From IMG/VR virus record IMGVR_UViG_3300044630_003601, positions 1,101 to 65,100 of that record: a DNA stretch of 64,000 bases, one strand, 5' to 3'. This document shows positions 35,786-52,674 of the stretch, one piece after another. This DNA is from a virus (Duplodnaviria; Caudoviricetes). The notes below the pieces were generated by a model. The model was given only the letters and a program-made list of their open reading frames with translations. It made no database searches and was not told the origin of the DNA. A program made the position numbers and the translations under genes. Numbering within the stretch: position 1 is the first letter of the stretch; every line of letters starts with the position of its first letter.

Positions 35786-38700
35786 TTGGCAATACAGAAT
35801 TTAATAACAGGTGAATTTCAGATCAGGAAATTAAATGGAGTTCTTGTAGCTACCAATGGTATCGTTGATGCGGTTGGTAATATTACATCTGGAACATCTG
35901 GATCAAGTGGTACTAGCGGCACATCAGGCACAAGTGGAACTTCTGGTTTTGCTGGTACAAGTGCCATGTTAGTTTATACATTCATAGCAAATGAAGGTCA
36001 AACTACTTTTTTTATTCCTAGTGGATATGTTAATGGTATGCTTGGTGTATTTGTTAATGGTGTTAAATTATCACCATTAGATTTTACATCATTAGATGGT
36101 TTTAATGTAATTTTAAATACACCTGTTACCGTAGGGGATATTGTAGAAATAGATAATTTTGTTGCTAATTATGTTTCTACTTCAGGAACTTCTGGAACTT
36201 CTGGTATTTCTGGTTCTTCAGGTACTACTGGAACATCGGGTTCTTCTGGTACTTCAGGTACATCAGGTTCTTCTGGAACATCTGGAACATCGGGTTCTTC
36301 TGGAACAACTGGAACTTCAGGAACTTCAGGAACAGCAGGTTCTTCTGGTTTAAGTGGGGATAGATATTTTACTACATCCAACACTACATTTACTTTAGGT
36401 AATTCTGGAACTTTGATTGTAGGGACAAATTTATCATTTAGTCCTGCGCAATCAATAGTCATTGTTTACGATAATACAAACTTCCAAGAGTGTGAAGTTA
36501 TTTCATATAATTCAACAACTGGGCAATTGCAATTTGCAGAACCCAATAGAACAGTTGGTTCGGGTACTTATTCTAACTGGTCAGTTAACTTAGATGGTGC
36601 ATCAGGTACATCAGGAACTTCAGGTACATCAGGAACATCAGCGACTTCAGGTACATCTGGAACTTCAGGTAGTTCTGGTTCAAGTGCTACAAGCGGTACG
36701 GCTGGAACTTCTGGTAGCTCTGGCACAACCGGTACGTCTGGCACAACTGGGACCTCTGGAACTTCTGGTACATCAGGCACAACTGGGACATCTGGAACTT
36801 CTGCAACCGATGGCACAAGTGGCAGTTCTGGTACGACAGGAACTTCAGGTACGACAGGAACTTCAGGTACAACCGGCACTTCAGGTACGTCAGGTACATC
36901 AGGTACTTCTGCAATAGATGGCACTAGCGGTACTTCTGGCACAACCGGTACATCAGGAACTAGTGGCACTTCGGGGACGACTGGCACATCTGGTACAAGC
37001 GGAACGGCAGGTACATCAGGTATAAATGGTATGAATGGGGTTGCAGGGGGTCTTGTGTACTATCTAAATCAATCTTTAAATACAGATACTGCGTTTGGCA
37101 CTCCAACATATAAGCAATGGTCGTCAATTCCAACGGGAGGCGCAGAGCAATCGGTAGCATTAAATAATGTACCCAACAACACAAGAACTCTTATTGCTAC
37201 TTATGCGACTGATTCAGGAGTACCTAATGTCACCACAATACCTTCAGGTTTATGGGCGTGGACAACACATTTTGACATAAACCATAATTGTGATTTAGCG
37301 GTAGATGTTGAACTTTACAAATATACAACAGGCGGAGTATCAACACTTTTAGGTACTACTAACATAGATACTGAACCAGTATCGTCAAATACTATTAAAG
37401 AATTTTTTACTGATTTATTTTTAATATCACAATCTTTAAACGCTACCGATAGACTTTATTGCAAAATATATGTTCTGCATAATCATGGTGGGAATGCTAA
37501 TATAAATTTTTATACTGAAGGAATAAGTAATTACTCTTTTGCACAAACAACATTCAATCCACCAAGTGGTACGTCTGGTACTTCAGGTACTTCAGGAATA
37601 GATGGAACTTCTGGATCTAATGGTACAAGCGGTACTTCTGGCACATCTGGTACTTCAGGTACAAGCGGTACTTCAGGAACTTCAGGTGAAAATGGTACAA
37701 GCGGTAGTTCTGGAACTTCAGGTTCTAGCGGAACTACGGGTACTTCAGGAACAACAGGTACTTCAGGAACAACAGGGACTTCAGGTACATCAGGTGAAAA
37801 TGGTACAAATGGCACATCCGGGACAACAGGTACTTCTGGATCAAGTGGTACTTCTGGTTCTACAGGGACAAGCGGAACATCTGGTACTTCTGGTGCTACT
37901 GGTTCTACAGGGACAAGCGGAACTTCCGGGACGAGTGGAGCTACTGGTTCTACTGGTACAAGCGGAACTTCTGGAACAAGCGGAGTTACCGGGTCTAGTG
38001 GTACTTCTGGAACAAGTGGTGCTAATGGTGGTAATGGGACAAATGGTACATCAGGTACAAGTGGTGCTAATGGTACAAACGGAACTTCAGGAAGTAGTGG
38101 AGTATCTCCATCTGTATCAGGGTATTTACCTTTGACTGGTGGTACACTTACTGGACCGCTTGTTATCGGAACAACAGGTTTAGCAAATAGCCCTTCATTA
38201 AGAATAAACACTTCATCTTCTTTACCTTTTGTACATACTCAAGAAAATTTTGCAGCAAATCTTACAGCAGGCCAAAGAGCTATGATATTCTTTGGTAAAG
38301 AAGGTAGCACTAAGAATGCTGGTGCCATTGGGTATTATTGGGCAGCGGCAGCCTCTAATAATAATTTTATAACATTAGGACATTGGGGAAATGATGATCT
38401 TTTAAGAATATACGGGGACGCTGCAGTTCAAACAACTGGCTATTTAAGAACAGCGGGTGTCACTTCAAATACAGTATTATTTACAAGTGGAACAAGTAGT
38501 GTTGATTTTGGTAATGCTCTTGGACAAGGTACTGCAAGTAGAAGTACATTTTTTAGAGGCAATACAAATAATGTTTCTGTATGGTGGGGTGGTATTGATG
38601 CTAATGGGGCTAATATCCCATTTGGAGCAATAGACGCAGTAGCTGGTGAGTTTAATTTTTGGAGAAATAGTGGTGGACTTGGTGGTGGAACATGGACAAA

Positions 38701-40390
38701 TACTATGACCATGAATTCATCTGGTCTTACTATGAATTCAGGAAACTTTATTGGTAATTTAACAGGAACAGCAAGTTCTGCAACTTCTGCAACTTCTGCA
38801 ACATACTTAGGAAGCGGAGGGTATATTTTTAGAGGAGGATTTAGTGGTAATTGTAATACAGATTTTCAAAACACCCCAGCAGGAAGTTATAGATATAATG
38901 GAGACAATCCCTCTGATGTAAATAATCCGGGAGGTACTTGGTGGTTTATTGAAAACTTTAGACATAGTAACGCAAGTAATTTCTGGGGTACACAAGTAGC
39001 ATGGGGATGGGAAGATAATGCTAATAGATTAGCTACAAGAAATATTACTGGTAATAGTTTTGGAGGTTGGGTTTATTATATGAATACGGCAGCTTATCCA
39101 TTTGCTGCTAATATGAATCAGAATGTTAGAACTTCTGATTCACCAACATTTAGTTCAGTTTATACCAATGACTGGATTAGAATGAATACAATTTTAGGAT
39201 TGATTTGTCCGGGAACTAATAATGCTCAACTTTATGCAAATAATGGTTCATATGGGGCATGGAAAATAGAAGGTTCTAGAAATAGTTACGGTGGTATAGA
39301 AGTGGGAGGTTTAAGTAATGGAAATATTTCTTGGATGGTAAATCTAAGTTCAAACACAACTGGTTTCAATAATCATTCTTATGGGTGGCAGTTTTATTGG
39401 CAAAGTGGTATTTTATATGTTGGAAAAGCTACATATGGTGGAGGTACTATAGCTACTGTTTTTGATACTTCAAATTATACATCTTTTCTAGATGCCCCTA
39501 ATAAAGCAGGAACATCTTATTATCAGACAAATACATGGTTGCAGCTTAATGGAGAATATGGTCTATACTGTCCATCAATAAATAATGCTCACTTTTATCC
39601 AAATACTAGAAGCTATGGCGCATGGAAAGTATTAGGAGAAAGAAACGGATGGAGAGGATTACATTTTGGCGAAGGATCAGGAATAACGCTAATGATGAAT
39701 GAAGGCGAGTTTGGGTTTCATAGAGAAAGTGTAGGCTGGGTGGGTAGATTTACTAGCGGAAGATATTATGGGACATCTGATAATACTGTTAGTATATCAA
39801 GTGCGGTAGGTGGTGGTTATACATGGACAGGAATTCAATATTTTGAAACAAATAACGGAGGTAGATGCGGCAGCACAAATAGTGCAAAATTACAAGCTTA
39901 CTCATCAGGTAATAACTCAGCGTTTATGTCTTTTCATAAAGGCGGTTACTATGCTGTTAATATGGGTTTAGATGATGATAACGTACTTAGAATTGGAGGT
40001 TGGAGTGCAGGGGCTAATTTATTTCAAATGGACATGGCAGGCAACCTTACAATGGCTGGAAATATTTGCGCTTATTCTGATTCTAGAGTAAAAGAAAATG
40101 TAAAAACAATAGAAAATGCTTTATCAAAAGTATTAAACCTAAGAGGTGTAAGCTATAATAGAACTGACTCTGATGATAAAAATACACAAATTGGCGTAAT
40201 TGCTCAAGAAACTTTACCTATTGTTCCAGAGGTAGTTAATATGGATAACAACGGAATGTATAATGTTGCTTATGGAAATTTTGGTGGATTATTTATTGAA
40301 GCTTTCAAAGAACAACAAGCTGAAATTAAAGAACAAAAAGCTCAAATTCAAGAACTTAAAAAATTAGTTAACCAATTATTAAGTAAATAA
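35786..40390 (+). CDS. tail fibre 1: (Gly-Thr-Ser)n collagen-like blocks, globular domains, C-terminal peptidase S74 chaperone
   Basis: Four SGT blocks; YSDSRVKENV..IENAL.KV..LRGVSY...IGVIAQE....PEVV followed by a coiled coil. Confidence 0.88.
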   Translation: MAIQNLITGEFQIRKLNGVLVATNGIVDAVGNITSGTSGSSGTSGTSGTSGTSGFAGTSAMLVYTFIANEGQTTFFIPSGYVNGMLGVFVNGVKLSPLDFTSLDGFNVILNTPVTVGDIVEIDNFVANYVSTSGTSGTSGISGSSGTTGTSGSSGTSGTSGSSGTSGTSGSSGTTGTSGTSGTAGSSGLSGDRYFTTSNTTFTLGNSGTLIVGTNLSFSPAQSIVIVYDNTNFQECEVISYNSTTGQLQFAEPNRTVGSGTYSNWSVNLDGASGTSGTSGTSGTSATSGTSGTSGSSGSSATSGTAGTSGSSGTTGTSGTTGTSGTSGTSGTTGTSGTSATDGTSGSSGTTGTSGTTGTSGTTGTSGTSGTSGTSAIDGTSGTSGTTGTSGTSGTSGTTGTSGTSGTAGTSGINGMNGVAGGLVYYLNQSLNTDTAFGTPTYKQWSSIPTGGAEQSVALNNVPNNTRTLIATYATDSGVPNVTTIPSGLWAWTTHFDINHNCDLAVDVELYKYTTGGVSTLLGTTNIDTEPVSSNTIKEFFTDLFLISQSLNATDRLYCKIYVLHNHGGNANINFYTEGISNYSFAQTTFNPPSGTSGTSGTSGIDGTSGSNGTSGTSGTSGTSGTSGTSGTSGENGTSGSSGTSGSSGTTGTSGTTGTSGTTGTSGTSGENGTNGTSGTTGTSGSSGTSGSTGTSGTSGTSGATGSTGTSGTSGTSGATGSTGTSGTSGTSGVTGSSGTSGTSGANGGNGTNGTSGTSGANGTNGTSGSSGVSPSVSGYLPLTGGTLTGPLVIGTTGLANSPSLRINTSSSLPFVHTQENFAANLTAGQRAMIFFGKEGSTKNAGAIGYYWAAAASNNNFITLGHWGNDDLLRIYGDAAVQTTGYLRTAGVTSNTVLFTSGTSSVDFGNALGQGTASRSTFFRGNTNNVSVWWGGIDANGANIPFGAIDAVAGEFNFWRNSGGLGGGTWTNTMTMNSSGLTMNSGNFIGNLTGTASSATSATSATYLGSGGYIFRGGFSGNCNTDFQNTPAGSYRYNGDNPSDVNNPGGTWWFIENFRHSNASNFWGTQVAWGWEDNANRLATRNITGNSFGGWVYYMNTAAYPFAANMNQNVRTSDSPTFSSVYTNDWIRMNTILGLICPGTNNAQLYANNGSYGAWKIEGSRNSYGGIEVGGLSNGNISWMVNLSSNTTGFNNHSYGWQFYWQSGILYVGKATYGGGTIATVFDTSNYTSFLDAPNKAGTSYYQTNTWLQLNGEYGLYCPSINNAHFYPNTRSYGAWKVLGERNGWRGLHFGEGSGITLMMNEGEFGFHRESVGWVGRFTSGRYYGTSDNTVSISSAVGGGYTWTGIQYFETNNGGRCGSTNSAKLQAYSSGNNSAFMSFHKGGYYAVNMGLDDDNVLRIGGWSAGANLFQMDMAGNLTMAGNICAYSDSRVKENVKTIENALSKVLNLRGVSYNRTDSDDKNTQIGVIAQETLPIVPEVVNMDNNGMYNVAYGNFGGLFIEAFKEQQAEIKEQKAQIQELKKLVNQLLSK
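35888..38102 (+). repeat. 9-nt-period coding repeats (SGT/SGS/TGT triplets) in fibre 1
   Basis: Blocks at about 35888-35962, 36176-36357, 36596-37050 and 37565-38102; synonymous codons are diversified. Confidence 0.9.
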
Positions 40391-40394
40391 TACA

Positions 40395-40694
40395 ATGGGA
40401 ACACCAAGTAGCGGTACTATATGTTGGAGTGACATACAAGCTGTGGCAGGCGGCGGCTATTGTATGTCTGATTTTAATGCTGCAAGCGGAAGGGGGTATT
40501 GTGCAAATGGTTATTATAATTATAATCCACCACCTACAACTTGTTATTTATATGATGTTTATGATTATGGGTATGCTGATTTTGTGGATTGCATTGGAAC
40601 TCCTACATATACGTATACTGTCCCTGGCGATTTCTTTTGTGTATCGGTTTGGTATTCTGGTCCTGCTTATAATACTTCGTTGACATGTATTTAA
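40395..40694 (+). CDS. putative fibre-tip protein (Cys/Tyr-rich)
   Basis: M..PSSG.I.WSDI...MSDF N-terminus typical of genes that follow S74 fibres; C-terminal Cys mini-domain. Confidence 0.55.
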   Translation: MGTPSSGTICWSDIQAVAGGGYCMSDFNAASGRGYCANGYYNYNPPPTTCYLYDVYDYGYADFVDCIGTPTYTYTVPGDFFCVSVWYSGPAYNTSLTCI

Positions 40695-40954: not shown

Positions 40955-41341
40955 ATGAAAACAATTGAACCAGTACAAGTTTGGTATAATGGCCAAGAAG
41001 TAAATGCAACAGTATTAAATGCATACGCAACAAATGTAGAATTAAATGTTTCTGCTAGTTTTTATTACACTTTATATAGTGTAAATCAATACAACACTAT
41101 ATATCAAGTAAATGGTGGAGTATTAAAAATGGAAGGTCAAGCTTACCAAGATTGGGATCAAGATACTTTTGCTTGGGATTGGGTAGCTGCTCAGCTTAAT
41201 TTAACAATTACAGGCGAGTATATACCACCTATTCCACCAACACCATTCCCAACAACACCAACAACAACAGCATCTCCTACAACTACTACAACAGAAGCGC
41301 CAACAACTACAACAACAACAGAATCAACGCCAATAGCATAA
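40955..41341 (+). CDS. fibre-associated protein with Pro/Thr-rich tail
   Basis: MK.IEPV..W.NG...Y..WD....AW.WVA.QLNLTI then PPIPPTPFPTTPTTTASPTTTTTEAPTTTTTTES. Confidence 0.65.
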   Translation: MKTIEPVQVWYNGQEVNATVLNAYATNVELNVSASFYYTLYSVNQYNTIYQVNGGVLKMEGQAYQDWDQDTFAWDWVAAQLNLTITGEYIPPIPPTPFPTTPTTTASPTTTTTEAPTTTTTTESTPIA

Positions 41342-41351: not shown

Positions 41352-43190
41352 ATGACTAAAAATACAATTTTAAGCGAATTACCTAATATTGATGGTATAA
41401 TTAAAGGAAACTTAGATGCTAACTTTAGCACAGCAGTTCCTGACGTTGACTACCAATTGCCATTAAGTCTTACGACAAATGGCGTTAGTGGACCATCTAC
41501 ATTTAGTGGTAATGTATTGAATGTGCCTATTTATAGCTCATCTTCTGGTACAGCTGGTAGTTCTGGTACGTCAGGTAGTTCTGGTACATCGGGTAGTTCT
41601 GGTAGTTCTGGTACAACAGGGACTTCAGGGACTAGTGGCACATCGGGTTCAAGTGGTAATACTGGTTCAAGTGGTACAAGTGGTACATCGGGATATGCGG
41701 GGGATAAGTATTATACTACTTCAACAACTTCTTTTACTTTAGGCAATAGTGGTACGATAACAGTACAGACAGCATTGGCATATACAATTGGTCAAACTAT
41801 CCTTATTGTATATAATATTACAAATTATCAAGAATCAGTAGTTACAGCGTATGATCCTATTACGGGATCTCTTTCATTTGGCGCTCCGGTAATCACAGTT
41901 GGTTCAGGTACTTATGCAGCATGGATTGTAAACTTAGCTGGTGCTAGTGGTGGTGATGGTAGTTCTGGTTCTTCAGGTACTTCAGGTAGTTCTGGTAGTT
42001 CTGGTGCTACGGGTACTTCAGGAAGTAATGGTACATCAGGATCATCTGGTACCACAGGAACTTCAGGGAGTTCAGGGTCTAGTGGAATTAACGGGACTAG
42101 TGGTACTACAGGTACATCAGGATCATCTGGTATTTCAGGTAGTTCAGGAACTACAGGAACTTCTGGAACTTCTGGTACGAGAGGTACTTCAGGTACGACA
42201 GGTACTTCGGGTACTTCCGGTACATCCGGAGCAGTTGGTGGCAATGGTACTTCAGGCACATCAGGTACCACAGGAACGTCTGGAACTTCAGGAACATCAG
42301 GTACCACAGGAACGTCTGGAACTTCTGGAACATCAGGCACTTCTGGTACATCAGGAGTAAATGGTGGAAATGGTAGTTCAGGTACTTCAGGCACATCAGG
42401 TACGACTGGAACATCAGGTACTTCTGTAACTGTTTCAGGTACTACAAATTGTTTAGCTAAATTTACATCAGCTACCACTATAGGTAATAGTATTATTTTT
42501 GCTGATACTACAAAAGTGGAAGTTGCAGGAGCGGAAGATGATTGTTTTAGAATATTTTCAGTACAACCTTTCCCATCAATTCGTGCCACAGGGGCATCAA
42601 ACACAGCAGGACTTCAAATACATCCAACAACAGGATTTGATGCAGCTATAGGCAACTATAATGGTGGAAGCTTAAACTTAGTTGCAGCTGGTAATACAAT
42701 TGTACAAGTAACTAATACTGTGGGGGTTATTTTTTATGTAGGAAGTCATGGACCAATAGCAGCATATGGTAATAATACTAGCGCATACAATATATACGTT
42801 AATTCATCTTCAGGTAATAAAACATGGGATATATCCATGTTTGGAAATGATTGGTATTTAAATGAAAGTAATATTAACGTAAGATTAAAAGTATTAGCAG
42901 GGGGAGGAGTTTATGCAGATGCATTTTATGAATTTTCAGATAAAAGATTTAAAACATTAGTTAAAGAAAATCCTATATTTTCTGGCATAGAATCAATCAC
43001 TGCAAAAAGTTATATAAAAGAAGGCAAAGAAGAATTAGGTTATTTTGCTCAAGATTTTGAAGGAGTTTTAGATAGTGCGATTCTTAAAGATAAAGATGAT
43101 GTTTTAAGTTTATCTTATCGTCAAGTTCATACAGCTAAAATAGCTGCTTTAGAAAAACGTATTGCTGAATTAGAAGCTAAATTAAAATAA
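41352..43190 (+). CDS. tail fibre 2: SGT collagen-like blocks + S74-like chaperone
   Basis: Two SGT blocks (about 41537-41700, 41939-42440); FSDKRFK...LGYFAQD...LSY......KIAALEKRIAELE. Confidence 0.82.
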   Translation: MTKNTILSELPNIDGIIKGNLDANFSTAVPDVDYQLPLSLTTNGVSGPSTFSGNVLNVPIYSSSSGTAGSSGTSGSSGTSGSSGSSGTTGTSGTSGTSGSSGNTGSSGTSGTSGYAGDKYYTTSTTSFTLGNSGTITVQTALAYTIGQTILIVYNITNYQESVVTAYDPITGSLSFGAPVITVGSGTYAAWIVNLAGASGGDGSSGSSGTSGSSGSSGATGTSGSNGTSGSSGTTGTSGSSGSSGINGTSGTTGTSGSSGISGSSGTTGTSGTSGTRGTSGTTGTSGTSGTSGAVGGNGTSGTSGTTGTSGTSGTSGTTGTSGTSGTSGTSGTSGVNGGNGSSGTSGTSGTTGTSGTSVTVSGTTNCLAKFTSATTIGNSIIFADTTKVEVAGAEDDCFRIFSVQPFPSIRATGASNTAGLQIHPTTGFDAAIGNYNGGSLNLVAAGNTIVQVTNTVGVIFYVGSHGPIAAYGNNTSAYNIYVNSSSGNKTWDISMFGNDWYLNESNINVRLKVLAGGGVYADAFYEFSDKRFKTLVKENPIFSGIESITAKSYIKEGKEELGYFAQDFEGVLDSAILKDKDDVLSLSYRQVHTAKIAALEKRIAELEAKLK

Positions 43191-45379
43191 TGAGTTGGAA
43201 ATCTATATCTGGAAATCAAACTGTATCTAGAGCAAATTTGCAAAATGCTATAGATACCGGTGTTTTTGTAGTAAAAAACGGGGTGCCTGCAACAGAGCCT
43301 AATAGAGGAGTAACAAAAGCCAATGTAGAAGATTATATTAATGTATGGAGCTTATATCCTCCTTTTAGGAATAAAGCACCAAATCAACTTCCTGTTAAAT
43401 CTAATCTTGCTGTACAGTCTAATCAAATATATGGTGGTACAGACACTAGGATATATGTTGGAAATACTAATAGAAATTGGGTATATAGCATAGATTTTGC
43501 TGGTGGAGATAGTATTGGTTCAGTCGCTTCTTCTACAGATAATAGATGTATATTATATGGTAAGTCTTATGATCCCGGAGCTGGTGGTGGTGGCGCTCAC
43601 GTGTCTAATGATTACGGAGAAACTTTTAGAAGGTTAGATGACGTGATGTCAACTAATGATGCATGTTTAGCAACTGCTATGAGCAGTGATGGTGAATTAA
43701 TGATTTTAACAAGGCAGGTTGGTTCATTTGATGCTGATAGAGCAAAAATATATATTTCATACAATTCAGGGGCAACATGGACTATAGCTTATAATGCAGG
43801 AGGGGTAAGATATAACTTTAACGGAGCTGCAATGTCTGGAAATGGAGGGTATATTACAGTATTAGGTTGTGATGGTGTATACTATTATGTATTTACGTCT
43901 AATAATTTTGGAGCAAGTTTTACTAGAACGTATTTTATCGTTGGAAGCAAAACTTTAGTTACAGGGTGTGTTGGTATGTCTAAATCAGGACAATATCAAT
44001 TAGTAGCTCCACCAGAACCATCTGGCTCTTTTTTGGGTTATTTTTATGTTTCAAATGATTATGGAAATAGTTGGACAGGTGTTACACTCCCAGATATACC
44101 ATTAGCTCCAAATGATATTTTTAAAGGATGTTCTGTTTCAGCAGGTGGTGATTACATGACAGTAGTTGCTTACTCTCTTACATTAGGTCAACTTAGAACT
44201 TATATCTCAAGTGATTGGGGAGTTAATTGGACTATTGTATCTGGTGGAAATATTGCTCAGGCTGTAGATAGTTCTGGTCAATTTCAATATCAAAGCGGAC
44301 GTGCATCTCAAAATTATGGAAATACGTGGTTTAATACAGGATTTTTTGGAAAGTCTATTTCTGTAAATCCAACAACATTTACAACCCCATACACTTACGG
44401 AACATCTACTGGTGGAAATTTATACAAATCTGTTGATCAAGGAAGTAGTTTTAGCTTAATATCTATATCTGGGTATTTTACTAAAGTTGCTACTTCTGGT
44501 GGCTCAAATAATGGTAAGTATGTAGCTGCTATTAAAGATAATGATCCCGGCGGATTCCCTAACTATAATCTTTACCAATCTTATGATTATGGGGCAACAT
44601 GGAACACAATTCTGTCTTTTGGTGGACAAGTATTAAGTTGTTGCGCTGTATCTGATGATGGAGTTTATTGGTTTGCTGCTGCATATGATGGACCATCAAA
44701 CGGTACATTCATATATAGATCTACTGATTCAGGAGTGACTTGGAGCTATGTGTATGCTGTTACTGGTCGGGCAGGAAACTGTGCTATGTCAAATACTGGG
44801 CAATATATAAGCATGGTGGTAAATAATGCTGATCGCCCTGGTCTTTACAATTCATTTTTAGCTAGCTCTAATGATTATGGGTTGAACTGGGCAGGGCAAG
44901 CTTTTAACAATACAGGAAGAACATTCGTTGATATTGCTATGTCTGGACAAGGTAGATTTAGAACACTTGTAAGTTCAGATTCTGGGGATGGTGGTGCTAG
45001 AATTTCTTATTCAACACAGTATGGTGTAGGTTTTAGTGACGTATTTCTTTTAGAATATTTTTATGCTACTTCATGTTCTATGGATGATTCTGGTCGTGTG
45101 GCAGTGGTATCATTTACGGGAGGGCAAATACCATTAGCCACAACTAGTAGAATATATTCTACAACAAATGGATGGGGTAGTATAAACACTTACAATACCG
45201 ATATATATCCCGGACCATTATTACCACCAACCATAAGCGGGGTAAATGTTTCTTCAGATGGAACATATTGGTCTGCAGTATCAAGTAATGCCGGGGGGTA
45301 TTCATTTACTTGCACTACTGGAGATGGGAATTTTGTTCCTAATATTACAGGAATAACCTTTAATAATTTATCAAAATAA
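43190..45379 (+). CDS. BNR/Asp-box beta-propeller adhesin (putative receptor-binding protein)
   Basis: About 11 SxDxGxT/SW/F boxes (SNDYGETF, SYNSGATW, SNDYGNSW, SYDYGATW, STDSGVTW...); TAATG-coupled to fibre 2. Confidence 0.8.
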   Translation: MSWKSISGNQTVSRANLQNAIDTGVFVVKNGVPATEPNRGVTKANVEDYINVWSLYPPFRNKAPNQLPVKSNLAVQSNQIYGGTDTRIYVGNTNRNWVYSIDFAGGDSIGSVASSTDNRCILYGKSYDPGAGGGGAHVSNDYGETFRRLDDVMSTNDACLATAMSSDGELMILTRQVGSFDADRAKIYISYNSGATWTIAYNAGGVRYNFNGAAMSGNGGYITVLGCDGVYYYVFTSNNFGASFTRTYFIVGSKTLVTGCVGMSKSGQYQLVAPPEPSGSFLGYFYVSNDYGNSWTGVTLPDIPLAPNDIFKGCSVSAGGDYMTVVAYSLTLGQLRTYISSDWGVNWTIVSGGNIAQAVDSSGQFQYQSGRASQNYGNTWFNTGFFGKSISVNPTTFTTPYTYGTSTGGNLYKSVDQGSSFSLISISGYFTKVATSGGSNNGKYVAAIKDNDPGGFPNYNLYQSYDYGATWNTILSFGGQVLSCCAVSDDGVYWFAAAYDGPSNGTFIYRSTDSGVTWSYVYAVTGRAGNCAMSNTGQYISMVVNNADRPGLYNSFLASSNDYGLNWAGQAFNNTGRTFVDIAMSGQGRFRTLVSSDSGDGGARISYSTQYGVGFSDVFLLEYFYATSCSMDDSGRVAVVSFTGGQIPLATTSRIYSTTNGWGSINTYNTDIYPGPLLPPTISGVNVSSDGTYWSAVSSNAGGYSFTCTTGDGNFVPNITGITFNNLSK

Positions 45380-45762: not shown

Positions 45763-45763
45763 T

Positions 45764-45800
45764 TAAAAAAAGAGCAGCTAAAAAGCTGCTTTTATTTTTT
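45764..45800. terminator. bidirectional terminator between convergent genes
   Basis: A-run, AGCAGCT-AAAA-AGCTGCT, T-run. Confidence 0.65.
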
Positions 45801-48800
45801 CTATAACCATTTGAGCTGTTATTGATTTATGACATTCAAAGTGTTTGTCAGTGCCTTTATGTTTGCACCAATTCCAATCTCCCTTATCAAATATAATCCC
45901 ATTTTCATTCCAACAGCTATTACAAACATTGGTATTTGTTATTCTAATGCAGTCTAATTGGAATTCGTGATCAGCAGAAGTGAAATTGCTTATCATAATT
46001 ACTTTCTTTTTTAAAGCCCAAGCAAGCCAGCTCAACCCACTAGAAAGCCCAATGAAGAATTCACTATTTAGTATTACATCAATTGTGTTTTCTATTGAGG
46101 TATCAGATATTTTAGTGCAATTATCAAATGGGTTATCCTCTTTAGATACGTTTATTACAGCATATCCTTCATCGTGTAAATAATTAATTACCTCTTGCCA
46201 TCCTTCCCTAGTCCAAAACTTGCATCCAGATGTTGAATTAGTGGCTATAGTAACATATTTGCCATTAATCTTGCTTTTATTCCTAATCTTCAACATTGGT
46301 CTTATTTCTTTAAATTCAAGACCTAGTATGTTTGTAGCTGCTTTTTGTAGTGGGATAGTATTTGGGACTTCTGGTTCTTTATCGCTGTTGTAAAACCATC
46401 CTAATCTATACGAAGCATGAATATTATCTACTACATTACCCGGCTCTACTAATTCCAATTCGGGATAGTCCAGTATTTTATTCCAAAAAGTGGACAATAT
46501 AACCTTGCATTGATGTAGCTTTTGAAATTCTAAAGCATAGGGAACCCAAGCTAATGTATCTCCCAATGATTTACTTTCTATAACAATAAATACTCTTTTG
46601 TTATTTAAGTGCAAGAAATTTGCATATATCATTTCATTACCTTCCCAAACTTTGGTTGTCCAATTTGTAAAGTATGTTCTATTTAATTTTACCCAAGTGT
46701 TTGAATTTATTATATTTTCGTAAATAATACTACCATTCCCATCAAAAAATTGAACTTTAAATTTACTATCTACATTGCCTTTGATTTCTAGAAATGGATT
46801 GTCAACAAAGTGCTGAGAAATAGATACTTTTTGCTTTTGAATAGGTAATTCAATTATTTTTTTATAAGCATCTTCTTGTCTAAAAGCAAATATAGGAGTG
46901 GTATTGTCTGTAGGTACTTCGTAATTGCATTCTAAGGTATTTAAATCGCTATCAATTGGCTGTAGGTAGTCTGTAAACATATCTCCATATTGAGGCAAAT
47001 TTCTAGCTATAATAGGCAATCCGTAGCTAATGGCTTCCCTCAAAACTAAGGGATTACATTCCCAAGTGCTATTGAACATAAATATATCAGCCATCTCCAT
47101 AAAAGTATCTATGTCTTTCCTTTCCCCCCAAACTTTAACATTACTAGGCAAATCTTTCATCAATGGTTCCCAATAATCCTTAAAGTTCCCAGCTTGATTG
47201 CCAACAAAATGAAATGTCATATTAGGGTATTTACGCGCAATTTCAATGCCTTCACCTTGATTTTTACCACTAGTCCATAACCCTACATTTAAAACATGTT
47301 TTCCATCTTTTACTGCATTAACTTCTTTTTTATCTATCGGATATTCTATTGTAACAAATGTAGATTCCATATTAGCAAAAGTTTCCTCATGATATGGAGA
47401 ACAGAATATATATGAATCTGGATGAAATATCTTTTCTTTATCAGGATCAAAAGATACGTCATGGCAAGTTTCTGCAATTCTATATTTTCTATTTGTGTTA
47501 TAAAGTTGTTTTATCATCTCCCTATCTAATCTTTCTGATGGCTCATCTATGTGTATTAAATCGGGCTTCCATTTATCAATTACTTTGAATAACTCCATTT
47601 TATCTTCGTATAAAGTAGTAAAGTTCTCTCCTAGTAAACTTTTTATCTTATCTCTTTGAACCACAAAATCTAAGCTATAGCATTGATATTCAACAACATA
47701 TATTTCACAATCAGTATAATCTTTAAGAGCTTCAATTCTTTTTAGTAAAAACTGGGGCATCCCGCCTGTGCTTAAATGTGGGGCTAGGTAAAGTATTCTC
47801 ATTTTCTTTTCTCCAATAAACAAGTTTATCTTGTCTATATTTTTTTCTCCATGATAAAATAATAAATCTTCTTTCTTTGCGGGTATTCTAAGCCAGTTGC
47901 CATCTATTCTGGCTTCTCCTGTAAATTCTAAATTATTATGTAATCCATTAACATATATACAAGGCAAGCCGTTAAAAACGAGTCTTTTGTATAGCAATAC
48001 GTTCATTATTGTTTCTTCGTGATATGGCGCATACCATTCATGATTTGCTAGTATTTTGGGGTGGTTGCACATCCAATACCATTCGTCCAAGAAGTCTATT
48101 GTTTTTTGCCCAGCAACATAATACCCCGTTTGCCTATATCTTTCCCTCACATATTGGTTTATACCAAATAAATCACAAGCTGGATGCTCTAACGTAGTGC
48201 TTAAATCATCTCTGCTATCGGCTCCACCACGACCATTTATATGCAAATAGTCATATACCCCTTCTACAAAATAAGGACAAGTTGAATTATAGTCATAAAA
48301 ATCAAAAATCCTATCTACGTAAGGACTTGCAACAGAATCAGTATCAATGTAAGCTACTGTGTCTGCGTAATTGATTAAAGCATCTTTTGTAATCTTGGGT
48401 CTTTCTATAAGGAGCTTGTAAATATCTTTGTCTGCTCTGTCTATATAATCTTTCCTTTTAACCGAATTTTTTACATCACAATCCCATCTTATTGTTATGG
48501 TGTTTTCTACTTCTACTTTATTGTCCGAATTAAGCATGTAAACGTAAATAGGATAAGTGCTAAAATTTCTAATGGAACGACAACAAGCATCCACAAGATC
48601 AAAATAGGAATCGTCAGCATAAAGGACGTAAGCTTTTTCATGTTCGTGTTTTTTTTTATTCAAAAATATATCATTTTCACGTCTATCAATATTGTAGATA
48701 TTTTGTATTTTTAATAGAATATTGTCTATTGCCTCTTTATTTGATATTTCATTGCACTCAAATTCTATAGTATCTGCAAGCAATTTAGGGTTAATGTTGC

Positions 48801-49248
48801 ATTGGTTTAAATATGACTCAAGTATAATGTGGTCATGCCCTTCGGTATCTATTTTAAGGTGTGTAATGCCTTCTATATTAAACATATCAACAAGAGAATA
48901 CCAATCCATCTTAATTACTCTTGTTTTTGTCACTATTTTATCATATAAATCTTTCCCTATCTTATTTATAACATATTCATGTGGTTTATCTACACTATTG
49001 CATCCTCTAACCCAATATGGTAGATTATTTTCTATTATTTTATCTTCTTCTATGTGGTATATATCTATAAATCCGCTATATTCAGATATAGCAGCATTGA
49101 CTTTAGTGACATTTTTTTTATCTGGGAGCCTGTCTAGATAGAATTTTATTGGTTCTATACTTAATCCAATGGTATTATCATCTGCATTTTCAATAAGAGT
49201 ATCAAAATCAGATGTACCTATTTCTATGAAATCGTAGTGTTTACCCAT
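45778..49248 (-). CDS. four-domain enzyme: FkbM-like methyltransferase + GT-A glycosyltransferase + GT4-like GT-B + TibC/Aah-like protein O-glycosyltransferase
   Basis: FIEIG...SIEP...NAAIS...LKIDTEGHD; AYIDTDSV; MRILYLAPHLSTGG...S.WECNPLVLREA...GLP; SLGDTLAWVPYA.EF...H.C...FIGLSSGLSWLAWA...CNSCW...W.WC.H...FEC.K.IT. Confidence 0.8.
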   Translation of the reverse strand: MGKHYDFIEIGTSDFDTLIENADDNTIGLSIEPIKFYLDRLPDKKNVTKVNAAISEYSGFIDIYHIEEDKIIENNLPYWVRGCNSVDKPHEYVINKIGKDLYDKIVTKTRVIKMDWYSLVDMFNIEGITHLKIDTEGHDHIILESYLNQCNINPKLLADTIEFECNEISNKEAIDNILLKIQNIYNIDRRENDIFLNKKKHEHEKAYVLYADDSYFDLVDACCRSIRNFSTYPIYVYMLNSDNKVEVENTITIRWDCDVKNSVKRKDYIDRADKDIYKLLIERPKITKDALINYADTVAYIDTDSVASPYVDRIFDFYDYNSTCPYFVEGVYDYLHINGRGGADSRDDLSTTLEHPACDLFGINQYVRERYRQTGYYVAGQKTIDFLDEWYWMCNHPKILANHEWYAPYHEETIMNVLLYKRLVFNGLPCIYVNGLHNNLEFTGEARIDGNWLRIPAKKEDLLFYHGEKNIDKINLFIGEKKMRILYLAPHLSTGGMPQFLLKRIEALKDYTDCEIYVVEYQCYSLDFVVQRDKIKSLLGENFTTLYEDKMELFKVIDKWKPDLIHIDEPSERLDREMIKQLYNTNRKYRIAETCHDVSFDPDKEKIFHPDSYIFCSPYHEETFANMESTFVTIEYPIDKKEVNAVKDGKHVLNVGLWTSGKNQGEGIEIARKYPNMTFHFVGNQAGNFKDYWEPLMKDLPSNVKVWGERKDIDTFMEMADIFMFNSTWECNPLVLREAISYGLPIIARNLPQYGDMFTDYLQPIDSDLNTLECNYEVPTDNTTPIFAFRQEDAYKKIIELPIQKQKVSISQHFVDNPFLEIKGNVDSKFKVQFFDGNGSIIYENIINSNTWVKLNRTYFTNWTTKVWEGNEMIYANFLHLNNKRVFIVIESKSLGDTLAWVPYALEFQKLHQCKVILSTFWNKILDYPELELVEPGNVVDNIHASYRLGWFYNSDKEPEVPNTIPLQKAATNILGLEFKEIRPMLKIRNKSKINGKYVTIATNSTSGCKFWTREGWQEVINYLHDEGYAVINVSKEDNPFDNCTKISDTSIENTIDVILNSEFFIGLSSGLSWLAWALKKKVIMISNFTSADHEFQLDCIRITNTNVCNSCWNENGIIFDKGDWNWCKHKGTDKHFECHKSITAQMVIEKIKAAF

Positions 49249-49249
49249 A

Positions 49250-49762
49250 TTATTTTTTTCTTATGTAATAGCCATAAACCTCATTACCATAAATAAGCTC
49301 TAAATCAGGGTATCTTTCTTTAACTAAGTCTGGTGTTAAGTCTGGTTGCAGATGAGTTTCATAGGTATTGCCTTCATATTCACCTTGCTCATATTGGTAT
49401 GGTACTGCAACAAGATATTCTTTGCCCGTTGATTTTAAAAAATTCATAAACCATTGTGCATCTTCCACTGAAAAATGTTCTAAAACATCCCCTAAAATAT
49501 AAAAATCATATCCTTTTAGTGCATTTAGCGGCATGTTAAAAACATTTTCTTTATAAACCACATTATACTTGTTTTTTAAATCATATTGTATAATATATGG
49601 CTCCCATATTTCAACTGCATCCATTTTATAATCATACCCTTTTAATAAATCAGAGTATGTACCGCATCCTGCTCCAATATCTAAAATTTTAGCATCAAAA
49701 GGTATGTTTTCTACGAACCAATTTCTTACTGAATCTTTGTAATAAGGATAACTACTTGGCAT
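49250..49762 (-). CDS. class I SAM-dependent methyltransferase
   Basis: ILDIGAGCG, DAVEIW, GDVLEH; start moved to ATG 49762 (MPSSYP) because the track's TTG lies within the -7 box. Confidence 0.85.
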   Translation of the reverse strand: MPSSYPYYKDSVRNWFVENIPFDAKILDIGAGCGTYSDLLKGYDYKMDAVEIWEPYIIQYDLKNKYNVVYKENVFNMPLNALKGYDFYILGDVLEHFSVEDAQWFMNFLKSTGKEYLVAVPYQYEQGEYEGNTYETHLQPDLTPDLVKERYPDLELIYGNEVYGYYIRKK

Positions 49763-49777
49763 ATTATGTATTTTTGA

Positions 49778-49835
49778 CAAAACTATGTATTTTTTTTAAT
49801 TAAATTAAATAATTAATAAATAAATATTACCTTTA
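49778..49835. promoter_or_regulatory. divergent promoter region of the glycosylation island
   Basis: TAGTTTTG on minus (49778-85), TACCTTTA variant on plus (49828-35), 16-bp motif variant between them (49796-49811). Confidence 0.55.
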
Positions 49836-49839
49836 CCCC

Positions 49840-50217
49840 ATGAAAATAGAAGTAAGTATCGGTGAAGTAGTAGATAAATATACTATTCTAACTATAAAAA
49901 AGCTATTCATCCATGATAATGAAAAGCTAGTAAACATAGAAAAAGAGTGGAAAATAATCAAGTCTGCTCTATTAAAAAAATACCCAGAAACACTAACAGA
50001 ACCCTTTACCCAAGAGCTTTATGACATAAACAAAAAGCTATGGAAAGTGGAAGATGATTTAAGGGATTGCGAGCATAAGAACTATTTTGGCGAAAAGTTT
50101 GTTGAATTAGCAAGGGAAGTTTACCAATTAAATGATGTTAGGGCTATAATAAAAAAACAAATTAATCAAAAGTATGGCTCTGAATTAATAGAAGAAAAAT
50201 CATATAAACAACACTAA
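49840..50217 (+). CDS. DUF6165-like protein
   Basis: EVS.GE..DK.TIL.IK...IN..LW.VED..R......F.ELAR.VY..ND.R..IK..IN....S...EEKSY. Confidence 0.7.
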   Translation: MKIEVSIGEVVDKYTILTIKKLFIHDNEKLVNIEKEWKIIKSALLKKYPETLTEPFTQELYDINKKLWKVEDDLRDCEHKNYFGEKFVELAREVYQLNDVRAIIKKQINQKYGSELIEEKSYKQH

Positions 50218-50220
50218 TTT

Positions 50221-51153
50221 ATGAAGAACATCAGATTTGTCTGCGCGCAACCCACCTCTATATTTTATGCTTGGCAAATAGAAGTTATGATTAATAACTT
50301 TATAGAAATGGGTATAAACCCAAATAGCATTGATATTGTATCTTGGAAAGTGAACAATGTAATTCCTGAAGAATGGTTAAAACTAGCTAATGCATATCCT
50401 GTTAGGTTCTTCTTTTATGATGATACTAGAGTTACAACACATTACATATCTTCTATCCGTCCTAATATATTGAAGCAGCATTTTGCAGCTCACCCTGAAT
50501 TAGAAGAAGAAGCAATTCTTTACCATGATTGCGATATTGTATTGACAAAACCAATAAATTGGGAACAATTTTTGGAAGATGAAAAATGGTATGGATCTGA
50601 TACTAGATGGTATATAGCGCATAGTTACATATTAAGCAAAGGTCAAGATGTTTTAGATAAAATGTGTGAAATAGTTGGTATTGAAGAATCAATTATTAAA
50701 GACAACGAGCTTAATTCAATTGGCGCACAATACTTAATGAAAGGTATAAATGCTGAATTTTGGGCTAATGTAGAAAAAGATTGTGAGAGATTATATAATG
50801 AAATAACAATGTTGAATAACATTAAAAAGGCTGAAAATAACCAATATCATGAATTACAAATATGGTGCGCAGACATGTGGGCAGTTCTTTGGAATGGCTG
50901 GAAATTGGGCAAAGAAACTGTTTGCCATCCAGATTTAGAATTTGCTTGGGGAACTAGCACCGAAAGCGATTTTGACAGATTAAATATATTGCATAATGCC
51001 GGTGTCGTTAGCTCTGCTGATGGTTTATTTTATAAAGCAGAATTTATGAATAGATTACCTTACAATCTAAATTTAAATATCAAAGAAGGAACGGCATCAA
51101 AAAAGTATTATGAAATTATACAAAAAGTAGAAAAAAAATCAGTTTTAATATGA
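50221..51153 (+). CDS. GT-A glycosyltransferase resembling plant HPAT/SERGT1 (GT95/GT96) protein O-glycosyltransferases
   Basis: YAWQ......F, Y.S.IRP....HF, ILYHDCD....P, GAQYL, WCADMWA parallel the Y..WQ / NKP..HW / D.D / W..EMY motifs of that family. Confidence 0.6.
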   Translation: MKNIRFVCAQPTSIFYAWQIEVMINNFIEMGINPNSIDIVSWKVNNVIPEEWLKLANAYPVRFFFYDDTRVTTHYISSIRPNILKQHFAAHPELEEEAILYHDCDIVLTKPINWEQFLEDEKWYGSDTRWYIAHSYILSKGQDVLDKMCEIVGIEESIIKDNELNSIGAQYLMKGINAEFWANVEKDCERLYNEITMLNNIKKAENNQYHELQIWCADMWAVLWNGWKLGKETVCHPDLEFAWGTSTESDFDRLNILHNAGVVSSADGLFYKAEFMNRLPYNLNLNIKEGTASKKYYEIIQKVEKKSVLI

Positions 51154-51806
51154 AAATCCCAGCTTTTATAATCAATTATAATAGATTAACATTACCTAAA
51201 AATATGGCTGAGTTTTTGTCCAAAAACGAAAATGTAGATGTATATATAATAGATAACAATAGCACTTATCAACCTTTATTAGATTGGTATGCTACATGCC
51301 CTTATAAGATTATTCACATGGATAAAAATTATGGACATACGGTTTTTTGGAATAAAAAATTATATGATATTTATGTTAAAGAAGGATATTATATTTTATC
51401 TGATCCAGATTTAGATTTATCTGAAATACCGGAAGATTGGTTAGATGTGCTACTAAATGGATTAGCTAAATATCAATATAATAAAATAGGCTTTTCATTG
51501 AAAACAAGCGATTTACCAGAATCGGTTTTTAGAAATCAAATAATTGATTGGGAAAGTCAATTTTGTACCCCAAAAGCTAAATATCTTGATGATTTATATA
51601 CAGAAGCACATATTGATACTACCTTTGCCTTACATAGAACAGATGAGCATGCATTATATTCTTCAGTCAGAGTAAATCATCCTTATACTGCAAAACACGT
51701 GCCTTGGTATTATACAGATTTTCAACTTTTACCAGAAGATGAAAAATTTTATTTTAAAAATATAAAAACAGATACTTTTTGGAGTAATCAATTCAATGTA
51801 AGATAA
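51150..51806 (+). CDS. GT2-like glycosyltransferase
   Basis: FIINYNR, IIDNNS, NYGH, LSDPDLD, A.IDTTFA, H.PWY. Confidence 0.75.
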   Translation: MKIPAFIINYNRLTLPKNMAEFLSKNENVDVYIIDNNSTYQPLLDWYATCPYKIIHMDKNYGHTVFWNKKLYDIYVKEGYYILSDPDLDLSEIPEDWLDVLLNGLAKYQYNKIGFSLKTSDLPESVFRNQIIDWESQFCTPKAKYLDDLYTEAHIDTTFALHRTDEHALYSSVRVNHPYTAKHVPWYYTDFQLLPEDEKFYFKNIKTDTFWSNQFNVR

Positions 51807-51807
51807 T

Positions 51808-52674
51808 ATGTTAAAAATTATAAAAGCTACCTATGGTGGCGCAGATTGTTCCGATGAATTACGAGGTTTAATGGTATCTGGTAAATTAGTAGTTAGAGCA
51901 AACAATAAGATAATAGGAGATCCCTCTTTAGGCATTGTTAAGTACCTAGAAGTTGAATTTAGCGATGGACACAAAGAGAAAGTAATGGAAGGAAATACTT
52001 TAGTCTATCCCAAGTCTAAAACCCGAAAATTGGGCATATTCTATTCAAATAATAACAATCATGAGATATGGCCTGCAATATATAAATCAATAGATACGAT
52101 TAAAGAAGCAAGTGAAGGGGTAGCAGAAATTGTGGTATGTACTTGGGAGCATATGCCTGACGTACCATTTCAACAAATAAAAAGCTGGTACACTAAACAA
52201 TCCCATCTTAATCAATTACTACAAATTATGCAGTGTCTTTATACTGCTAAGAATATGGGACAATACGACTATGTTTCTTTCCTTGAACATGATGTAATGT
52301 ATCCAAAGGGATATTTTGATTTCCCTGATTTCCCGAATGGGCAGGTGCTTACAAATATGAACTACGGGGGCGTATGTAAAAATGGGTGGCAAAAAAGAAA
52401 CCAACACGATCAACCATTTCACCAAATGACCATGCGCTTTGATGATGCAATTGAACATTGCTTAACTATATTGCCTAATGCATTAGTTACAAATAGCGGA
52501 ATGATTGAAACACAAAAGCTAACAAGGACTCAATGGAACTGCGAAAACGAGGCAGTACATATAAATCATGGAGTTCATTTTACTAGCCATAATTCTATTT
52601 ATGATAAAGACAATTTAACACAATTACACCCATATTGGGGCGAACATAATAAATATAAAAATTTATTTATATGA
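51808..52674 (+). CDS. SUEL/Gal-lectin-like domain fused to a GT-A-like domain
   Basis: LKIIKATYG...N..IGDP..G..KYLEV; C-terminal YVSFLEHDVMYP..YF. Confidence 0.6.
   Translation: MLKIIKATYGGADCSDELRGLMVSGKLVVRANNKIIGDPSLGIVKYLEVEFSDGHKEKVMEGNTLVYPKSKTRKLGIFYSNNNNHEIWPAIYKSIDTIKEASEGVAEIVVCTWEHMPDVPFQQIKSWYTKQSHLNQLLQIMQCLYTAKNMGQYDYVSFLEHDVMYPKGYFDFPDFPNGQVLTNMNYGGVCKNGWQKRNQHDQPFHQMTMRFDDAIEHCLTILPNALVTNSGMIETQKLTRTQWNCENEAVHINHGVHFTSHNSIYDKDNLTQLHPYWGEHNKYKNLFI

Follow-up and report, generated by a model that had tools for sequence, protein, structure and literature searches.

The virus genome considered here places an island of genes for glycosyltransferases and methyltransferases (45778-52674) between its fiber genes and its lysis genes, and the question raised by this locus is what these enzymes would modify. 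The window, meaning the whole stretch of DNA that was analyzed, comprises 64,000 of the 65,100 bases of a single IMG/VR virus record (IMGVR_UViG_3300044630_003601) with a completeness rating of 100%. A sequence-only reading of the window had proposed that the phage encodes a cytoplasmic system for O-glycosylation of its own Ser/Thr repeats, and this core proposal was supported by every comparative test that was run. The phage probably sugar-coats its own particle, since comparisons among phages tie the enzyme block to two kinds of repeat, namely Gly-Thr-Ser (G-T-S) triplets in collagen-like fibers and linkers composed solely of Thr. The island is thus likely a kit for O-glycosylation of virion proteins, one that would be active in the host cytoplasm during particle assembly.

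The fusion enzyme and the Gly-Thr-Ser fibers

The best-defined domain of the island forms the C-terminal part of a four-domain protein of 1156 amino acids (aa; Table 1). It scores 255.6 bits against TIGR04414, for which the curated equivalog cut-off is 200 (256.8 bits in a six-frame search), and 33.4 bits against PF01075, and the TibC structure 4rap in the PDB matches residues 828-1148 with an E-value of 1.4e-43. The catalytic base of TibC, Asp-110, aligns with D897; Thr-226, Lys-230 and Trp-305 are retained as T1006, K1010 and W1074; and the iron-finger residues Cys 339, 342, 358 and 370 are retained as C1109, C1112, C1128 and C1139. All of these residues are invariant in 18 phage sequences. 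Pro-300 of TibC is replaced by Ser in the phage domain, as it is in Aah. By these sequence measures, the domain genuinely belongs to the TibC/Aah family (BAHT), with an iron finger predicted from the aligned Cys, and what had first been noted as a resemblance to TibC and Aah is real family membership. Among the best 150 representatives of this branch of the family, 137 are longer than 420 aa.

TibC and Aah are cytoplasmic enzymes that transfer sugar to serine of repeat proteins, with TibC acting on TibA/AIDA-I, and the available portion of the source describes the BAHT family for autotransporters only (PMC4358343). The same portion assigns the residue roles, including catalysis by Asp-110 and a contact between Arg-286 and the adenine N1 of ADP-heptose (PMC4358343). 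Family searches found no autotransporter among the open reading frames (ORFs) of the window. The phage domain resembles the TibC-TibA and Aah-AIDA-I systems of E. coli (PDB 4RAP/4RB4) in its catalytic Asp, in three of four sugar-binding residues and in its four iron-finger Cys, and it would likewise be a soluble cytoplasmic enzyme with serine-rich repeats as its likely acceptor. Unlike TibC and Aah, it is encoded by a phage and fused to GT4, GT-A and methyltransferase domains, and its likely acceptor is a collagen-like G-T-S fiber rather than a beta-helical autotransporter.

A family search found no sequence family for one of these fused segments, residues 195-482, which was folded from an alignment of 24 relatives. 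Foldseek matched the resulting model to the ABO transferases GTA/GTB and to alpha-1,3-galactosyltransferase (E 2e-7, probability 1.00, TM about 0.5), and its DxD motif (D108/D110 of the alignment) is invariant across 24 sequences.

Two Ser/Thr-rich G-T-S fibers had been placed just before the island by the sequence-only reading, and the coordinates agree with the matches to Pfam Collagen and the PHROG tail fiber families. Gly-X-Y triplets in runs of at least five number 131 in the 1534-aa fiber and 72 in the 612-aa fiber. X is Thr in 73% and 60% of these triplets, respectively, and otherwise Ser, while Y is Ser in 70% and 71%; over the whole proteins, the counts are 216 Ser and 233 Thr in the longer fiber and 106 Ser and 94 Thr in the shorter. 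Both fibers have the long unbroken Gly-X-Y runs typical of PF01391. At neither X nor Y does Pro rank with the more frequent residues, and the window's fibers depart in this from typical collagens, in which Pro or charged residues at these positions stabilize the helix. The fibers of the closest relatives contain 0% Pro and about 2-3% charged residues. Bacterial collagen-like proteins, in the part of the source that tabulates them, have Pro at 19-31% of X and Thr at 32-48% of Y (PMC8968730, its Table 1). The 1534-aa fiber is the proposed acceptor of the BAHT domain. Long Pro-Glu-Val-rich ORFs also run across the collagen repeats on the minus strand and in other frames (36169-38211 and 41912-42604); these antisense or off-frame ORFs are by-products of the triplet periodicity and not genes.

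When viral contigs were searched using the BAHT domain as the query, 49 related loci (53-91% identity) were recovered that share a conserved core, in which a divergently oriented DUF6165 gene is followed by methyltransferase, GT-A, GT4 and BAHT domains encoded as one protein (about 1130-1160 aa) or two (about 450 + 670 aa). After the core, and on the opposite strand, come a small protein with a poly-Thr tail and a collagen-like fiber. Thirty-two of the loci have at least 5 kb of downstream sequence, the remaining 17 of the 49 being too short to judge, and in 30 of the 32 a fiber gene with at least 30 Gly-X-Y triplets starts 8-4033 bp (median 1.5 kb) after the BAHT gene; the two without a fiber nearby are L039 and L046. 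All such fibers have Thr or Ser at X, Ser at 58-76% of Y and Pro at 0-5.6%, and this repeat make-up stays constant even though their other domains are often unmatched. The loci themselves differ in neighbors and size (contigs of 28-115 kb), and include window-like genomes of 57-70 kb, a terminase-adjacent group and records of 100-115 kb.

The association was also approached from the side of the repeats. Scanning of viral contigs with the DNA pattern (GGN-WCN-TCN)x5 gave at least 153 stretches, of which 80 loci were listed; with ten contigs of 10.5 kb or less left out, the sample consisted of 47 records among the matches listed. The BAHT family was found in 16 of these 47 records, 14 of them above the cut-off, and in four of the five that are at least 80% complete. 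By comparison, none of 48 records in a G-P-X pattern control (listed contigs, largest first) had the family, nor did any of the 15 that are at least 80% complete (Fisher p 2.7e-6). A second control, based on a poly-Thr pattern, had it in two of 42 records (p 5e-4 versus the G-T-S set), and poly-Thr was rejected as a partner of the BAHT gene on that count. Co-variation of the island with the Ser/Thr repeats, which the sequence-only reading had envisaged, is thus positive for the BAHT gene and the G-T-S fibers, and negative for the BAHT gene and poly-Thr.

Among isolated or curated phages, the BAHT part of the 1156-aa protein was matched in four records. For example, Microcystis phage Mel-JY01 (L051, PP395634) has a G-T-S ORF of 149 triplets located 1.7 kb upstream of an FkbM...BAHT gene, and the 735-kb phage LR756501 has a G-T-S ORF beside its BAHT enzyme. 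A record of equal length, LR756503, gave a BAHT match equal to that of LR756501.

The Mel-JY01 ORF is an open frame of 805 residues (635-3052) that is unannotated; the deposited annotation instead places a hypothetical coding sequence at 739-2298 of the other strand, together with a short one at 2519-3052, which is probably a mis-call caused by the repeats. LR756501 has 1060 matches to the pattern G-[T/S]-[S/T]x5, all on one strand, with the first 100 listed at about 103.5-105.7 kb; the matches listed, arranged as in a giant G-T-S gene, lie more than 470 kb from the BAHT gene. In bacterial genomes that contain the repeat pattern, matches are mostly single and unspecific, and one of 20 has the BAHT family above the cut-off, away from the repeat. 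An 18-kb contig of a Nitrospiraceae metagenome-assembled genome (contig 90; L557-L559, L665) begins with a C-terminal BAHT fragment and has G-T-S repeats within 1.4 kb; it may represent phage DNA that was binned with the bacterium.

Within the virus's own lineage, the BAHT gene is kept in all 12 records that are at least 90% complete. No relative that has lost the island was found among these 12, so the lineage provides no natural loss for comparison. The only near-complete relative without a BAHT match is a 59.9-kb IMG/VR record (L345/L346, 89% complete) with two opposed TerL copies and inverted terminal repeats, and it is probably a fold-back assembly artifact.

The phrog_4417 enzyme and the poly-Thr linkers

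Tracts of at least five Thr number 16 in the window's proteome, versus a mean of 0.375 (maximum 3) over 200 within-protein shuffles. They occur in exactly six further ORFs, as linkers ahead of small Cys-containing end domains or as tails. The sequence-only reading had counted six virion-associated genes of this kind. The number stands, but a virion family match was obtained only for the 1379-aa protein (phrog_14478); four of the others lie inside the structural block, and the virion association of the 109-aa protein is unproven because its gene lies between the replication and packaging genes. The 128-aa protein is a conserved neighbor of the fiber and glycosyltransferase genes in many relatives, and its homologues with poly-Thr adjoin the BAHT gene in 16 distinct sequences.

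The candidate enzyme dedicated to poly-Thr, on the evidence of gene neighborhood, is the phrog_4417 glycosyltransferase of the island and not the BAHT domain. Its model was matched by Foldseek to WbbM, glycogenin, UGGT and LgtC (E 5e-8 to 2e-5, probability 1.00, TM 0.41-0.53), and D103/D105 are invariant across 17 sequences. The protein gave no Pfam match at E-values up to 10, nor did 17 relatives at values up to 1; a profile search of the PDB was likewise without a match, and none of 120 listed homologues carries a Pfam domain. By sequence, therefore, it falls in neither the CAZy/Pfam GT8 family nor the HPAT family PF23452. The family is large, with 4169 homologues at E<=0.001. In predicted fold and DxD motif, phrog_4417 and residues 195-482 of the fusion protein are like GT8 (glycogenin, LgtC and the catalytic domain of UGGT) and GT6 (the ABO transferases), respectively, and glycogenin and UGGT themselves act on proteins. 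They differ from GT8, GT6 and the plant enzymes HPAT/SERGT1 (GT95/GT96) in that identity is 8-12%, with no family-level sequence match. A likeness to HPAT/SERGT1 had been suggested for this enzyme and survives as a lead only: in a single neighboring Atlas cluster, 10% of members carry PF23452; phrog_4417 itself has no Pfam match and a GT8-like fold.

An alignment search of viral contigs with phrog_4417 gave at least 557 relatives, of which the best 80 were kept. Thirty of these 80 belong to the window's lineage, with the enzyme inside the island; the other 50 are 60-68% identical and have at most five other genes in common with the window. An upstream ORF on the same strand is present in 48 of the 50, and in 47 of these 48 loci it contains poly-Thr tracts, located 87-868 bp before the start of phrog_4417. 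Poly-Thr occurs in 24 of 685 other ORFs of those loci (3.5%; p 6e-55). The 50 enzymes form 23 clusters at 90% identity and 19 at 80%. More distant clades (33-38% identity) keep the adjacency, and in 100-kb relatives the enzyme (33-36% identical) is flanked by small poly-Thr ORFs. From the side of the repeats, phrog_4417 was found in four of the 42 poly-Thr records, each time within 5 kb of the tract, and in one of the 47 G-T-S records, where it is also flanked by poly-Thr ORFs. The expected co-variation is therefore positive for poly-Thr as well, with an enzyme other than the one first considered.

The upstream proteins are 189-1963 aa long, with up to 29 tracts between small Cys-containing domains in a beads-on-a-string arrangement. 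Of 15 poly-Thr proteins scanned, two start with a major-tail-protein domain (phrog_1407) and two are phrog_14478 virion proteins. The window's own phrog_14478 protein is a candidate acceptor of phrog_4417, as the genes of its homologues with poly-Thr ends immediately precede phrog_4417 elsewhere (L669 and L743, from other phages). Some beads-on-a-string proteins (L702, L704, L739 and others) also have long Gly-rich stretches between the poly-Thr linkers, ending in a conserved '...GGYTYHTFTSSG...' motif.

The remaining island genes are supported to varying degrees. About six glycosyltransferase domains had been claimed; four are well supported (GT4, BAHT, GT6-like and phrog_4417), the GT2-like protein is weak, and the C-terminal part of the 288-aa protein is unassigned. 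In the GT2-like protein, D35 and D85xD87 are invariant in three sequences that are 32-37% identical, and its profile found nothing in the PDB. The lectin-like domain is real, in that a profile of the 288-aa protein and its relatives matched L-rhamnose-binding lectins in the PDB (5h4s, E 8.2e-11; 2zx0, E 4.3e-5). No fold or family was found for its 210-residue C-terminal part, for which the Atlas gave weak GT-A leads only (0.83-0.85); a relationship to phrog_4417 or to the GT2-like protein was rejected at hhalign probabilities of 0.1-0.2. Of the two methyltransferases in the sequence-only reading, the FkbM domain is above its cut-off, and the 176-aa protein is under the Pfam cut-offs, yet its homologue is an N-terminal domain fused to the GT6-like domain in most relatives. 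DUF6165 was identified correctly, and it adjoins the BAHT gene in 37 of the 49 loci (26 distinct sequences); a predicted-complex run of DUF6165 with the GT4-BAHT half scored 0.00, which is uninformative on binding either way. The island proteins are without membrane segments, as no 19-residue Kyte-Doolittle mean exceeds 1.6, and the description of them as soluble enzymes was borne out in this respect.

Table 1. Features of the window discussed in the text, by position (aa, amino acids; SAM, S-adenosylmethionine).
Feature	Position	Strand	Evidence or note
109-aa protein with two terminal poly-Thr tracts	5634-5963	-	Outside structural block, between replication and packaging genes
Small protein with one poly-Thr tract	11650-12033	+	Just past portal gene
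Small protein with four poly-Thr tracts	12054-12671	+	Just past portal gene
crAss-phage tail ring protein 2 match	17124-17756	+	Pfam, 30.4 bits, above cut-off
1379-aa virion protein; three poly-Thr linkers, then small C-terminal Cys-containing domain	18813-22952	+	phrog_14478
181-aa protein with four poly-Thr tracts	22977-23522	+	Tract scan
crAss muzzle C-terminal domain match	23535-24083	+	Pfam, 20.5 bits, under cut-off
Tail fiber, 1534 aa; four Gly-Thr-Ser triplet blocks, C-terminal S74 intramolecular chaperone domain	35786-40390	+	Pfam Collagen PF01391 163 bits; Peptidase_S74 52.8 bits; PHROG tail fiber families
128-aa protein; Pro/Thr-rich tail with two poly-Thr tracts	40955-41341	+	Tract scan
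Second tail fiber, 612 aa; Gly-Thr/Ser-Ser triplets	41352-43190	+	Pfam Collagen PF01391 100.7 bits; PHROG tail fiber families
1156-aa four-domain protein	45778-49248	-	FkbM methyltransferase, GT6-like GT-A, GT4 and BAHT domains
TibC/Aah-family (BAHT) protein O-glycosyltransferase domain, residues 827-1153	45790-46770	-	TIGR04414; PDB 4rap
GT4-type GT-B domain, about residues 483-800	46849-47802	-	PF00534 47.6 bits; PF13692 39.8 bits; phrog_2170 glycosyltransferase
GT6-like GT-A domain, residues 195-482, DxD at D302/D304	47803-48666	-	AlphaFold2 pLDDT 90.9; Foldseek
FkbM-type methyltransferase domain, residues 26-167	48748-49173	-	PF05050 25.3 bits, cut-off 22.7
Class I SAM methyltransferase, 176 aa	49250-49780	-	Pfam matches under cut-off
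DUF6165 protein, 125 aa, divergent from glycosyltransferase gene	49840-50217	+	PF19662 48.9 bits, cut-off 27
phrog_4417 glycosyltransferase, GT8-like GT-A fold, DxD D103/D105	50221-51153	+	phrog_4417 E 4.9e-64; pLDDT 93.8
Probable (weak) GT2-like GT-A glycosyltransferase, 218 aa	51150-51806	+	PF00535 18.3 bits, cut-off 23.3
288-aa protein; N-terminal rhamnose-binding-lectin-like domain (residues about 27-76, nt 51886-52035) and 210-residue remainder	51808-52674	+	Profile versus PDB

A proposed glycosylation system and its rivals

In the proposed system, the BAHT domain would add the first sugar to Ser, and perhaps Thr, of the G-T-S triplets in both fibers before the triple helix winds, the fused GT4 and GT6-like domains would lengthen the glycan, and the two methyltransferases would cap it. 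On the poly-Thr linkers, through which small Cys-containing end domains are joined to particle proteins, glycans would be started by phrog_4417. Accessory roles would fall to DUF6165 and to the lectin-headed protein, and the latter may hold on to the glycan as it grows, in the manner of the lectin domain in animal mucin GalNAc-transferases. The likely gain would be stability, stiffness and protease resistance of the proline-free triple helix and of the linkers, as has been proposed for glycosylated BclA. As purposes, protease resistance, stiffening and bait for host receptors are speculation.

Each part of this system has known counterparts. BclA is glycosylated and Mimivirus glycosylates its collagen, and sugar is thought to aid the hydration network of the hydroxyproline-less helix in BclA-type proteins, according to the available portion of PMC8968730. 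BclA of Bacillus anthracis/cereus, BclA1 of C. difficile and the Mimivirus collagen are, like the fibers of the window, microbial or viral Gly-X-Y proteins, and these three are glycosylated. The fibers differ from BclA-type bacterial collagens in having Thr at X, Ser at Y and scarce Pro, and the enzymes differ too. With respect to phages, extensive virion glycosylation is stated for mycobacteriophages in PMC12582341 (see also the genome note PMC11256854), and it has been shown only for these phages as far as the literature cited in PMC12582341 extends. The likeness lies in phage glycosyltransferases encoded beside structural genes, with particle proteins as targets, which in the present case is read from the genes. 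Freeman et al. 2023 (Cell Host Microbe) reportedly located the mycobacteriophage sugars on C-terminal extensions of capsid and tail-tube subunits. Such extensions would resemble the poly-Thr C-terminal extensions on major tail proteins encoded upstream of phrog_4417. Unlike the present case, the hosts of mycobacteriophages are actinobacteria, and the acceptors proposed here are collagen-like triplets and pure poly-Thr linkers. No BAHT domain is known to take part in mycobacteriophage virion glycosylation, and the enzyme families appear to be different. No paper was found that links phage collagen-like fibers to BAHT enzymes, or poly-Thr to a phage glycosyltransferase, in a search that left most subscription journals outside, so that absence is unproven. 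Phage virion glycosylation, BAHT enzymes and glycosylated collagen-like proteins are known kinds, of which the present system would be a variant.

Several observations weigh against this interpretation. The whole case rests on family membership, folds and gene neighborhood, and the known substrates of BAHT enzymes are beta-helical autotransporter repeats and not collagen-like triplets. In the 16 positive records of the G-T-S scan, the distance between the enzyme and the listed repeat ranges from 35 bp to 64 kb, and proximity is only suggestive there (combined p 0.06). One 84%-complete record encodes G-T-S fibers of 3994 and 3927 aa and has two GT4 and four GT2 matches, yet it lacks both BAHT and GT9, and LR756504 has a BAHT gene without a strict match to the repeat pattern. 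The G-P-X control is probably richer in G+C and drawn from other hosts, which partly confounds the contrast; this confounding is eased, though not eliminated, by the control with poly-Thr and by the case of the cyanophage. Because the loci are related to each other, the counts overstate the number of independent events. The same holds for the 50 phrog_4417 enzymes outside the lineage, which are related, as they collapse to only four clusters at 70% identity. Moreover, the window's own lineage does not show the adjacency: the poly-Thr gene closest to phrog_4417 is 2.7-9.4 kb away, or the locus has none.

The donor sugar is a further difficulty. BAHT enzymes of the TibC/Aah kind transfer heptose from ADP-heptose and form dodecamers. 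Heptose is thus suggested as the first sugar by family precedent only, and its use is uncertain because the adenine-contacting Arg-286 of TibC is replaced by T1055, an invariant Thr in the phage enzymes, and because no sugar-nucleotide pathway is encoded: family scans of the window found no genes for sugar-nucleotide synthesis, those of the heptose pathway included. Among 29 BAHT-positive phage records, heptose-pathway genes are above cut-offs in two (gmhA in LR756504 and rfaE domain II in G010), and such genes were accordingly rejected as a general companion of BAHT.

Three other explanations of the island can be considered. The enzymes might be protein glycosyltransferases with other targets, i.e., host proteins or other phage proteins, and the gene pairings might reflect common descent of blocks in aquatic phages. 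Many of the loci are indeed related, structural blocks hold gene order for non-functional reasons, and the weak proximity in the second set, the fiber-bearing record without BAHT and the BAHT-bearing record without a strict repeat would all fit. Even so, this is an unlikely account of the data, as the pairings recur amid entirely different neighbors in podophage-like, 100-kb, cyanophage and 735-kb genomes, the partners of phrog_4417 are unrelated carriers (major tail proteins and phrog_14478 proteins), and the repeat make-up is constant across fibers whose other domains are unrelated.

Slightly less probable still is that the enzymes remodel the host surface or make free polysaccharide (lipopolysaccharide, capsule or slime), for example in blocking superinfection, and that the repeats are bare spacers. 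FkbM methyltransferases are often found in glycan clusters; GT4, GT2, GT6-like and GT8-like folds are common in polysaccharide synthesis; and RfaG weakly matches the GT4 domain, with WbbM and LgtC among the fold matches of phrog_4417. Such a role would leave the tracking of BAHT with G-T-S and the adjacency of phrog_4417 to poly-Thr unexplained. In addition, the enzymes have no membrane segments, family scans of the window turned up no flippase, polymerase or lipid-carrier transferase, and the family of the best-defined domain is known, in the available portion of PMC4358343, only as protein serine O-glycosyltransferases. Modification of phage DNA, of the kind carried out by the glucosyltransferases of T-even phages, is very improbable. 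Soluble phage-encoded GT-B and GT-A enzymes that glycosylate DNA do exist, but the window yielded no hydroxymethylase and no other gene for base modification, BAHT enzymes act on protein, and the island sits between fiber and lysis genes, away from the genes of nucleotide metabolism.

With virion-protein O-glycosylation as the preferred reading, a broader proposal can be offered tentatively, and with slightly less than even confidence. Glycoprotein particles may be made by many aquatic phages known from uncultured genomes, which range from podophage-like ones of 60 kb to giants of 735 kb, and by a cultured cyanophage, through two dedicated enzyme-substrate pairs that are absent from print. In one, a phage branch of the BAHT family would act on Ser of proline-free Gly-Thr-Ser collagen, with sugar taking the helix-stabilizing role of hydroxyproline; in the other, a GT-A family would build mucin-like brushes on poly-Thr linkers of tail-tube, muzzle and fiber proteins. 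Both pairs would be represented in the single island of the window. If this is true, virion glycosylation would be widespread in environmental phages, given 682 cluster representatives of the BAHT branch at E<=1e-30 and the thousands of phrog_4417 homologues noted above, and the BAHT family, known only from virulence autotransporters, would have a second and perhaps larger class of substrate. A collagen triple helix without proline and almost without charge would be accounted for, and a large unnamed phage protein family (phrog_4417) would gain a function. There would also be a bearing on host recognition, particle stability, immune recognition of phages and the design of glyco-engineered fibers.

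Other genes of the window and the likely host

The window encodes a replication initiator, a primase-helicase, a large terminase, a portal, virion proteins, tail fibers, a lysis block and early genes. Terminase identity does not exceed 29.4% for any of 87 matching records among 50,697 phage records; the 87 comprise 68 Flavobacterium, 15 Cellulophaga, two Tenacibaculum, one Maribacter and one uncultured Caudoviricetes record. The tail-ring-2 and muzzle matches point to a crAss-like tail architecture, and the primase carries a BT4734-like domain. Judged by these similarities, the virus is distantly related to crAss-like phages and to podophages of Flavobacteriia, and a Bacteroidota host is likely given its terminase relatives, its crAss-type Pfam matches and its BT4734-like primase.

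The structural block also includes a GroES-type co-chaperonin (PF00166, 60.2 bits; 17764-18036, plus strand), and a weak PHROG co-chaperonin match is encoded before the terminase (6068-6733, plus strand). A ferritin-like/rubrerythrin protein (PF00210, 66.4 bits; 29602-30096, plus strand) lies between very large virion-block ORFs (980 and 1524 aa) and is kept at 70-74% identity in the relatives L026, L033 and L038. This is an odd location for an iron binder, though the BAHT domain is an iron-finger enzyme. Straight after the fibers, a 729-aa protein (43190-45379, plus strand) combines beta-propeller repeats of the Sortilin-Vps10/BNR type (PF15902, 41.5 bits) with weak similarity to the F510_1955 glycosylhydrolase family. 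The N-terminal ~80 residues reappear on otherwise unlike tail proteins of relatives, and this tail protein probably binds a receptor or cleaves glycans and shares its attachment domain with others. Immediately past the island, the lysis block (52938-55401, plus strand) consists of three small proteins with hydrophobic segments (at 52938, 53107 and 54225) together with an M15-peptidase endolysin (54934-55401).

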